From NCBI GenBank assembly GCA_963704725.1, contig OY969934.1:2145040-2209039 (forward strand): 64,000 bases of DNA. The letters run 5' to 3'. The translations under genes and the position numbers were made by a program. Below the pieces are notes generated by a model. It was not told the DNA's origin. It searched no databases and saw nothing but the letters and a program-made list of their open reading frames with translations. Origin of the DNA: an uncultured Actinomycetes bacterium. GTDB taxonomy: Bacteria > Actinomycetota > UBA4738 > HRBIN12. This document shows, piece after piece, positions 21,189 to 23,506 of this stretch (within the stretch, counting starts at the first letter, position 1; every line of letters begins with the position of its first letter).

Positions 21189-22676
21189 TCACCCCATGGC
21201 GTGGAAGGTCTCGGCGAGCGCCGGGTACAGACCGCGGTAGCGGGCGTACCCCTCCGCGTAGCCCTCCACGGCGCCCGAGGGCTCCACGGCGTTCCCGACC
21301 TCGACGAGGCGCCGGCACGCGTCCTCGACCCCGTCGAACCACCCGACGCCCACGGCGGCGAGCATCGCGGCGCCCTGGGCCGCGCCCTCCGAGCCCGTGG
21401 CGGTGACCACCGTCGTGCCCAGCACATCCGCCAGGATCGACCGCCACAGGGCGCTCTTGCTGCCGCCCCCCGTCGCCCGGATCTGCGTGAACCCGCCGAG
21501 CCCGACGGCCCGCATCAGCTCGAGCGAGTCGCGGAGCCCGAACGCCACGCCCTCGAGCACGGCGCGGGTGAGGTGCGGCCGTCCGTGGTGCACCGTGAGC
21601 CCCACGAACCCGCCTCGGGCGAGCGGGTCCGGGTGGGGGGTTCGCTCGCCCGTGAGATACGGAAGGAACAGGAGGCCGTCGCTCCCCGCCGGCACGGCCT
21701 CGGCCTCCGCCGTGAGCTCGTCGAACGCGGTCCCGGGCGCGACGGCGTCCCGGTACCACCGCAGGCTGCCCGCGGCCGAGAGCATCACGCCCATCACGTG
21801 CCACCGGCCCGGCACAGCGTGGCAGAAGGCGTGCAGCCGCCCCTGCGGCTCGATCAGCGGACCGTCCGTCGTGGCGAACACCACGCCGGAGGTTCCGAGC
21901 GACAGCGAGACGATCCCTGGCTCGACGGCTCCGACGCCGACGGCCGCCGCGGCCTGGTCGCCCCCGCCGGCCACGATCGGCGTGCCCGCTCGGAGCCCGG
22001 TCGCGGCGGCGGCCTCCGCGGAGACCACCCCGGTGACCGCCGGGCCCTCGTAGGTCGTCGGCAGCCATGCGCGCTCGATGCCGAGGGCGTCCAGGACCTC
22101 CACCGACCAGTCCCGGGCGGCCAGGTCGAACAGGAGCGTGCCGGCCCCGTCCGCGCAGTCGACCGCGAGGTCGCCGCTCAGGTGGAAGCGGACGAAGTCC
22201 TTCGGCAGCAGGACGTGGGCGATGCGGGCCCACACGTCCGGCTCGTTCCGGCGAACCCACAGCAGCTTGGGGGCCGTGAAGCCGGTGAGCGCGTCGTTTC
22301 CGGTGATGGCGATCAGGCGATCTCGGCCGAGGGTCTCGCGGATCAGGTCGCACTCGGCCTGGGTGCGCTGGTCGTTCCACAGGATCGCCGGGCGCAAGAC
22401 CTTCCCCTCGGCGTCGAGCGCGACCAGACCGTGCATCTGTCCCGTGAGGCCGACCGCCTCGACGTCGCCCGCGCCGAGGCCGGCCCGCCCGACCGCCTCG
22501 CCGACCGCCTCGGTGGTGGCGCGCCACCAGGACTGCGGATCCTGCTCGCTCCACAGCGGGCGGGGCGTCTCGTACGGGTACTCGGCGGCCGCGGAGGCGC
22601 GGACGACGCCGCCCCGATCCAGGAGCAGCGCCTTGGTCGCCGTCGTGGAGACGTCGAGGCCGAGGACGACGCTCAC
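21189..22676 (-). CDS. xylB: Xylulokinase (FGGY kinase)
   Basis: FGGY N- and C-domains (LGLDVSTTATKALL ... GGGSKSALWRSILADVLG). GTG at 22676 overlaps the stop of the upstream gene. Confidence 0.9.
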   Translation of the reverse strand: MSVVLGLDVSTTATKALLLDRGGVVRASAAAEYPYETPRPLWSEQDPQSWWRATTEAVGEAVGRAGLGAGDVEAVGLTGQMHGLVALDAEGKVLRPAILWNDQRTQAECDLIRETLGRDRLIAITGNDALTGFTAPKLLWVRRNEPDVWARIAHVLLPKDFVRFHLSGDLAVDCADGAGTLLFDLAARDWSVEVLDALGIERAWLPTTYEGPAVTGVVSAEAAAATGLRAGTPIVAGGGDQAAAAVGVGAVEPGIVSLSLGTSGVVFATTDGPLIEPQGRLHAFCHAVPGRWHVMGVMLSAAGSLRWYRDAVAPGTAFDELTAEAEAVPAGSDGLLFLPYLTGERTPHPDPLARGGFVGLTVHHGRPHLTRAVLEGVAFGLRDSLELMRAVGLGGFTQIRATGGGSKSALWRSILADVLGTTVVTATGSEGAAQGAAMLAAVGVGWFDGVEDACRRLVEVGNAVEPSGAVEGYAEGYARYRGLYPALAETFHAMG

Positions 22677-23506
22677 GCCTCGCCGTCCTCCGTTCGGCGG
22701 AGCGTCCAACGCTCCCGGTGCGTGACCTCCTCGCCCGGCCCGAGCGTGCGCAGCGGGCCGAGCGTCTCCAGCTCGCAGAACTCGTCGCAGACGTAGACCT
22801 GGACGGCGGCCCCGCAGTCGGCGTAGGCGGCGCCTGGCCACACCTCGGTCCGCTTCTCGAACACGTCCCGCCCGAGCTGGAAGCGCACGGCGCCGTCGCC
22901 GGGGGCCGCGCCGATCTTCACGGCCGGCCCGGGCCCGGCCCGGAGCCGGACCGCGTCACGCTCGAACGTCAGCCGCGGGTCGGCCAGATCCGTGTACGGC
23001 CACAGGACGAGCGAGCGATCGGCCTGGAGCCCCCGTCCGTTCGCTCCCAGCGGCAGGATCGCCTCGCCGCCGGGCCGGAGCTGGGTGACCGCCCACGGCG
23101 CGATCGTGAGCTCCACGCCCGAGGCGTTGCCGATCGTGTGGTCGACGGTCCATCCCCCGTCGGCCCGCCGGATCTCGATCGACTTCACCAGCCCCGCGCC
23201 GTCCGCGGGGGCCTCGACGCGGACGCCGCCGTCGACCTCGGTCGCCGCGCACGGCCGATCGTCCGGCTCGTAGGAGATCTCGGGGACCTCCGGAGCCGCC
23301 CACAGGCGGTGCCCCCCGATCAGACGGAACCGCGACCCGTCGCCGCGGTCGAGCGCGGCGTCGGGCAGGACCGCGAAGAGGTTCCCCTGCGATCCGGTCA
23401 GCCCGAGGACGCGCGGACCGAGCGACGTCGTCACGAAGACCTCGGCCCCCTCGTCCGCGAGGCGGACGCAGTCGTGCCCCTCGAACGAGACCGCCTCGAG
23501 CGTCAC
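22673..23506 (-). CDS. Hypothetical protein (277 aa) encoded between xylA and xylB
   Basis: GC3-biased frame. GTG start overlaps the xylA stop as GTGA, and its stop overlaps the xylB GTG start. No confident family assignment; beta-rich, possibly mutarotase-like. Confidence 0.6.

Follow-up and report, generated by a model that had tools for sequence, protein, structure and literature searches.

A conserved gene between xylA and xylB with a probable role in D-xylose mutarotation in an uncultured Actinomycetes bacterium

What is the function of a gene that is held between xylA and xylB without any gap? This question is raised by a stretch of DNA of 64,000 nucleotides (nt) from an uncultured Actinomycetes bacterium (contig OY969934.1, positions 2,145,040 to 2,209,039), referred to here as the window, in which a gene for a protein of 277 amino acids (aa), called gene X in this work, separates the genes of a xylose isomerase (XylA) and a xylulokinase (XylB). 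In public records, X and its close relatives carry the label 'hypothetical protein'. On the basis of sequence comparisons and a predicted structure, we consider it reasonably probable that X is a soluble cytoplasmic D-xylose mutarotase (aldose 1-epimerase), which would feed α-xylopyranose to XylA and stand in for the canonical enzyme XylM. Anomer conversion of xylose had been suggested as one possible role in the original prediction, made from the DNA sequence, and it is the best-supported role, with support that is entirely computational.

Xylose isomerases of the Streptomyces and Arthrobacter types bind α-xylopyranose, and xylan breakdown gives β-xylopyranose (PMC10629123, PMC12285236). Anomerisation can limit the flux through xylose isomerase in engineered yeast, and the addition of a xylose epimerase to yeast expressing xylose isomerase led to faster xylose use (PMC10629123). 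In Lactococcus, the canonical mutarotase gene, xylM, is located in the xyl operon (PMC10629123).

Gene X and its place in the xyl operon

All three genes are located on the minus strand and follow each other with zero intergenic gap, in an arrangement that is kept across taxa. The xylA gene (24666..23503, ATG start, preceded by GGAGG about 8 nt upstream) encodes a class I (Arthrobacter/Streptomyces-type) xylose isomerase of 387 aa. Gene X (23506..22673) begins with GTG, as does xylB (22676..21189), which encodes a xylulokinase of 495 aa. At the first junction, the sequence GTGA (23506-23503) contains both the start codon of X (GTG, 23506-23504) and the stop codon of xylA (TGA, 23505-23503), and at the second one, GTGA (22676-22673) combines the start codon of xylB (GTG, 22676-22674) with the stop codon of X (TGA, 22675-22673). 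Shine-Dalgarno-like sequences precede both starts: GGGAG (23511-23515, minus strand) lies within the 3' end of xylA, 4 nt ahead of X, and GGAGGA (22686-22691, minus strand) lies within the 3' end of X, 9 nt ahead of xylB. Direct reading of the minus strand thus bears out the gene, its length and the overlap on either side, as originally described.

The same prediction took these overlaps to imply obligate co-translation, which is an overstatement. Overlaps of 4 nt are routine in such genomes, and GTGA is also shared at a permease/ATPase junction elsewhere in the window (31950-31953). They reflect tight operon packing and, probably, coupled translation, and alone they are no proof that co-translation is obligate. 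In our model, the three genes would share one transcript, and the translation of X is probably coupled to that of both neighbours. A promoter and terminator scan of window positions 20900-29500 and a search for inverted repeats upstream of xylA gave nothing above background.

The window has a GC content of 72%, long open frames are common on both of its strands, and the frame of X runs without a stop codon over 649 codons, as far back as position 24622. Such features would suit an artefact, either a spurious open reading frame (ORF) due to the high GC content or a part of xylA or xylB that was wrongly split off, an explanation so improbable that it hardly needs to be kept. XylA matches TIGR02631 with 554.8 bits (cutoff 447) over model positions 1-382 of 382 and also matches Pfam AP_endonuc_2; XylB matches TIGR01312 with 576.2 bits (cutoff 380) over positions 1-480 of 481, together with FGGY_N and FGGY_C. 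Because both proteins span their complete family models, X is not a fragment of either of them, and the possibility that it is a fused, misannotated part of a neighbour, which had been named as grounds for abandoning the original prediction, is refuted. The reading as a spurious ORF is refuted by codon usage (GC content of 0.77/0.53/0.95 at the three codon positions, GC3 0.946, with the same pattern in xylA and xylB), by full-length homologues sharing a conserved N-terminus (MTLExVSFEGH) and by a confidently predicted fold. Stand-alone homologues of X are also found in unrelated contexts. X is a genuine gene, as its GC3, its homologues and its fold attest.

The arrangement is not limited to this bacterium. 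Synteny was assessed in 80 loci, one genome per species, whose X relatives are 39-68% identical to X. The gene directly upstream, on the same strand, is xylA in 62 of the 73 assessable loci, equally divided between class I and class II isomerases (31 each), and the next gene downstream is xylB in 54 of 71. The complete order xylA-X-xylB was found in 45 of the 66 genomes in which both flanks could be read, and these belong to several phyla, so the claim of a conserved unknown embedded in xylAB holds. The class II isomerases are about 30% identical to those of class I, and the one at locus L030 was confirmed by TIGR02630 (657 bits). Hosts with an xyl-linked X include Actinomycetes, Acidimicrobiia, Chloroflexota (Anaerolineae, Herpetosiphonaceae), Acidobacteria, Bacteroidota and one metagenome-assembled genome (MAG) of Gammaproteobacteria. 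A low-GC homologue only 34% identical to X is flanked by xylA and xylB as well.

In a neighbour-joining tree, the xyl-linked X proteins form one major branch, which is subdivided by the class of xylA, while the other major branch holds Thermoanaerobacter, haloarchaeal and context-free members. Among loci L002-L081, the X proteins fall into two large clades according to the adjoining isomerase, class I in MAGs of Actinomycetes and class II in Acidimicrobiia. As the clades of X match the class of the adjoining isomerase, X and xylA were evidently inherited together. To describe X as 'inserted' between xylA and xylB is therefore misleading: judged by these comparisons, it is a long-travelling member of the xyl cluster.

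Family membership and relatives in galactose operons

A word-indexed search returned 914 homologues of X at E<=1e-3, nearly all of them full length and 270-290 aa long, the closest being encoded by MAGs of uncultured Actinomycetota, with identity up to 69%. An exhaustive profile search extended the family to 2633 clusters at 50% identity, 643 of them at E<=1e-30, and these approximately 2600 clusters are spread over bacteria and archaea. The sole NCBIfam match to X is NF052227, "TTE1925 family mutarotase", a name taken from the June 2026 release (E=4.9e-44, residues 2-269 aligned to model positions 2-275 of 298), with a score of 150.6 bits that lies far under the equivalog cutoff of 550. A Thermoanaerobacterium protein (P0381) used as a control scored 566.8 bits, above the cutoff. 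BLASTP aligned X with this control across the whole length (27% identity, E=6e-37), and the two share the motifs GPR, GGHRLW.xPE, PW, R.LVLWPY, E.E.LGP and H.E.W. By these comparisons, X is a true yet distant homologue of the TTE1925 family, not an equivalog. The earlier statement that X matches no nameable family no longer applies in full, as the TTE1925 name now fits; what stands of it is the distance of X from the proteins that carry that name.

In Pfam, X has no match above threshold. DUF4380 (PF14315) aligned only with the C-terminal 28 residues of X (12.5 bits, gathering threshold 29.4), true TTE1925-family proteins gave borderline scores against the same model (27-34 bits), and DUF6786 showed just a faint C-terminal match to X. 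Neither RbsD/FucU (PF05025) nor RhaM (PF05336) matched X in the Pfam or NCBIfam scans. In public records, proteins of the Thermoanaerobacter group are called 'hypothetical', 'DUF4380 domain-containing' or, recently, 'TTE1925 family mutarotase'. A tblastn search of the window with four aldose-1-epimerase paralogues of E. coli, which is a weak test, found no canonical mutarotase.

The clearest hint of function comes from relatives outside xyl operons. In Caldanaerobacter subterraneus and Thermoanaerobacter, a TTE1925-type gene follows galT, galK, galE and a ROK regulator, and downstream of it lie a sugar ABC transporter, a GH36 α-galactosidase and a GH2 β-galactosidase. This is the slot that galM occupies in galETKM of E. 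coli. X resembles the TTE1925 proteins in full-length homology, invariant motifs and size (277 against about 300 aa), and both are stand-alone cytoplasmic proteins encoded inside a sugar-catabolic operon. They differ in that the TTE1925-type gene closes a Leloir gal operon (galT-galK-galE), whereas X is located between xylA and xylB, and in that they belong to separate major branches of the family tree. One sequence family with two branches, in gal and in xyl operons, parallels the occurrence of GalM and XylM; the common activity would therefore be mutarotation, acting on xylose in the branch represented in the window. This is the strongest indirect argument for the proposed role. Galactose is implied as the substrate of the TTE1925-type proteins by the gal operon, and xylose as that of X by xylA and xylB.

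The position of X between the two genes could also be read in another way, with X acting on the product of XylA, either on the ring and anomer forms of D-xylulose (α/β-furanose, keto) or through an RbsD-like pyranose/furanose conversion, for the benefit of XylB. The best-conserved and tightest coupling is indeed that of X to xylB: the 4-nt overlap is kept in 52 of the 60 loci with xylB downstream, while at the xylA/X junction it is possible in at least 33 of 67, most of the others having a gap of a few bases. Four loci (L038, L046, L048 and L068) carry an X-xylB pair without an adjoining xylA, some relatives outside xyl clusters adjoin other genes of pentose metabolism (transketolase, form-III RuBisCO), and enzymes of the GalM fold are known for other substrates, for example the hexose-6-phosphate mutarotase 2ciq/2cir. 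Gene order in an operon is, however, a weak guide to the order of reactions, the relatives in gal operons hold the slot of an aldose mutarotase, and furanose ketoses are generally known to mutarotate fast without an enzyme, which makes the need for such a step less obvious. We regard action on xylulose as unlikely.

Predicted fold and proposed reaction

The original prediction suggested a mutarotase-like fold, and structure prediction agrees with it. An AlphaFold2 model of X, built from a 25-sequence alignment, is all-β (pLDDT 87.4, pTM 0.87), and its best Foldseek matches in the PDB are galactose mutarotases and aldose 1-epimerases. The top entries are GalM of B. subtilis (4bze, 3mwx) and YphB of E. 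coli (3nre), and the list continues with aldose 1-epimerase-like structural-genomics proteins (3q1n, 3k25, 3os7, 3dcd), YeaD (2htb), GalM of L. lactis (1nsm), human GalM (1snz) and the yeast hexose-6-P mutarotase (2ciq), all with a probability of 1.00. The best match has E=5.5e-10, at identities of 8-14% and TM-scores of 0.5-0.6 across the matches. The model thus gives X the β-sandwich fold of galactose mutarotases.

Across 258 diverse members of the family, the invariant positions are R32, G64-G65-H66-R67, W69, P72-E73, D82, K108, H123, N127, W138, W169, K197, G199, K218, D230, E245, E247, E265 and W267. The catalytic set of L. lactis GalM consists of His96, His170, Asp243 and Glu304, with Glu304 acting as the base and His170 as the acid. 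In X, the residues H66, H123, D230 and E245/E247 follow each other in the same His-His-Asp-Glu order, and we infer the correspondence by order alone. The known GalM proteins (E. coli galETKM, L. lactis, B. subtilis) thus resemble X in the order of these residues and in the predicted structure (probability 1.0 for 4bze/3mwx), and they differ from it in sequence, with 10-14% identity and a TM-score of only 0.5-0.6.

We further infer mutarotase activity itself, its substrate and the residues that would perform it. Xylose would enter the cell through a neighbouring XylF-type ABC transporter or be released from xylo-oligosaccharides, and it would then be mostly β-xylopyranose. Within the cleft of its GalM-like β-sandwich, X would use general acid-base catalysis to speed the ring-opening equilibrium between the β and α forms, with the family-invariant His66, His123, Asp230 and Glu245/Glu247 as candidate catalytic residues. 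XylA, a user of α-D-xylopyranose, would no longer be limited by slow spontaneous mutarotation, and the xylulose formed would be phosphorylated by XylB. This proposed role is the same as that of XylM, an aldose 1-epimerase (PF01263) of the xyl regulons of Lactococcus lactis and Geobacillus, which interconverts α- and β-D-xylopyranose ahead of XylA (PMC10629123, PMC12285236). Like X, XylM is encoded with xylA and xylB, and it has the overall β-sandwich fold that is predicted for X; unlike X, it is about 340 aa long, and the two have no detectable sequence relation.

Several observations weigh against a mutarotase. The score of X against NF052227 lies far below the cutoff, and the name of that family may itself be inference-based. 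No match to Aldose_epim (PF01263) was found in a Pfam scan even at E<=1. The probability given by hhalign was below 2% for E. coli GalM in two profile comparisons, one of them with the 258-sequence alignment, and likewise for that alignment against YeaD, YphB and YihR of E. coli. Sequence searches of the PDB with X, with the 25-sequence profile and with a true TTE1925-family protein returned no match. No paper on TTE1925, DUF4380 or any family member was found in the library searched, nor any biochemical or structural data for a member of the family; literature searches for a mutarotase together with tengcongensis, Caldanaerobacter or Thermoanaerobacter, and for a gene between xylA and xylB, yielded nothing on the X family. 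The match between the residues of X and those of GalM is one of order, as stated above, and some members, among them one from haloarchaea with 40% identity to X, lack any sugar-gene context. Finally, the Foldseek list also holds non-catalytic uses of the fold, namely YidC P1, NDH subunits and the N-terminal accessory domains of GH36 and GH94.

These last matches, in which the fold is non-enzymatic, are those expected if X is not a catalyst at all and serves as a sugar-binding or scaffold protein, holding xylose or bridging XylA and XylB through its β-sandwich. Two-sided translational coupling would suit stoichiometric assembly of this kind. Against such a function, the strictly invariant residues include many that are ionisable (2 His, 1 Asp, 2-3 Glu, Arg, Lys), which resembles an active site rather than a mere binding surface, and the family has quite different partners elsewhere, in the gal operon and in Gfo/Idh/MocA clusters, which argues against a specific XylA/XylB scaffold. 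A non-catalytic X is accordingly somewhat less likely than the already doubtful action on xylulose. A related idea, that X sits at the centre of an assembly with XylA and XylB or supplies the kinase with D-xylulose in one particular ring form, would explain both the tightest coupling being to xylB and the X-xylB pairs without an adjoining xylA; we give it only a small chance.

A different reaction on xylose-derived compounds, for instance the hydrolysis of a xyloside or its epimerisation at some other carbon, seems more improbable than any of these catalytic or structural roles. It would fit a family in which no member has direct biochemical evidence and which is only faintly related to DUF4380 and DUF6786. 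The Pfam and NCBIfam scans, however, gave no similarity to a hydrolase catalytic domain, the closest stand-alone structural matches are all mutarotases, and the gene neighbourhoods lack the extra substrates that such a step would imply. Mutarotation of D-xylose remains the reading that we favour, and X probably represents a branch of the TTE1925-type family that is specific for xylose and functionally analogous to XylM.

Genomic surroundings and meaning of the finding

Beyond the operon, the window contains a xylose transporter-like cluster on the plus strand. It consists of a xylF-like binding protein (29432-30541; 379 bits against TIGR02634 xylF, just below the cutoff of 389.6), a GguB-like ABC permease (30568-31953) and an XylG/RbsA-like ABC ATPase (31950-32735), whose GTG start shares GTGA with the permease stop. 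In roughly 40 of the 80 related loci, homologues of the xylF-type transporter are encoded no more than about 6 kb away from X. The usual XylG/RbsA ATPase has two cassettes and about 500 aa, whereas the one in the window has a single cassette and 261 aa; many related loci encode the same short form, with 74-89% identity.

A short-chain dehydrogenase gene (20450-21160, plus strand) converges on xylB. Its product is 71-86% identical in 29 of the 80 related loci, including those of Acidimicrobiia in which X is only about 45% identical; the gene accompanies the xyl cluster and shows unusually high conservation. On the other side, 65 nt upstream of xylA, the minus strand encodes an M24/creatinase-like protein (457 aa) and an FG-GAP/ASPIC-UnbV protein (663 aa) at 24732-28112, and both genes are kept upstream of xylA in the 12-17 closest loci. 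Between the FG-GAP gene and xylF, a stretch of about 1.3 kb (28113-29431) holds no confidently identified gene, and a 363-aa ORF at 28301-29392 had no NCBIfam match. No ROK-type xylR was seen adjoining the xyl cluster of the window. In related loci, a divergent gene of 384 aa is present upstream of xylA (L030, 3412-4566). Further away, at 18149-19286 on the minus strand, genes for a CheB methylesterase and a STAS-domain (anti-sigma-antagonist-like) protein lie just past a Gfo/Idh/MocA gene and are unrelated to the xyl cluster.

Relatives of X also occur in other settings. At locus L094 (637-5894), a relative on the xyl-linked branch closes a cluster with LacI, a URO-D-like protein, a 287-aa AP_endonuc_2 TIM barrel of the sugar-phosphate-isomerase type and Gfo-Idh-MocA; the X family thus has a part in a sugar pathway that is neither xyl nor gal. 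In Thermoanaerobacterium sp. RBIITD (L082, 5894-8903), a true TTE1925-family gene (567 bits) comes right after transketolase, with no gal operon. On a haloarchaeal metagenome contig (L085, 7001-9180), a relative 35% identical to X immediately precedes a gene for the large subunit of RuBisCO, of form III, and a gene of the IF-2B family (ribose-1,5-bisphosphate isomerase family) lies 3 kb upstream of the relative, a context that may connect this relative with the archaeal pentose-bisphosphate pathway. Further members have neighbours that are uninformative or merely suggestive (transketolase, form-III RuBisCO, glycolytic genes, none).

Sugar mutarotases are familiar as products of the operon whose pathway they feed, and one more would be unsurprising to a specialist. 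New about X are its distinct branch, its distinct operon and its unannotated state in public records. There may be a whole family of the GalM fold, unrelated to GalM in sequence, that was separately recruited to gal, xyl and other sugar clusters and has never been biochemically characterised. If the proposed role is correct, a large set of 'hypothetical proteins' would gain a function, namely those encoded in xylose operons by soil Actinomycetota, Acidimicrobiia, Chloroflexota and further phyla, and a compact mutarotase of 277 aa that evolved together with isomerases of class I or class II would become a candidate part for engineered yeast. The xyl and gal operons would also have drawn in a second sequence family of the GalM fold, alongside the canonical XylM and GalM.

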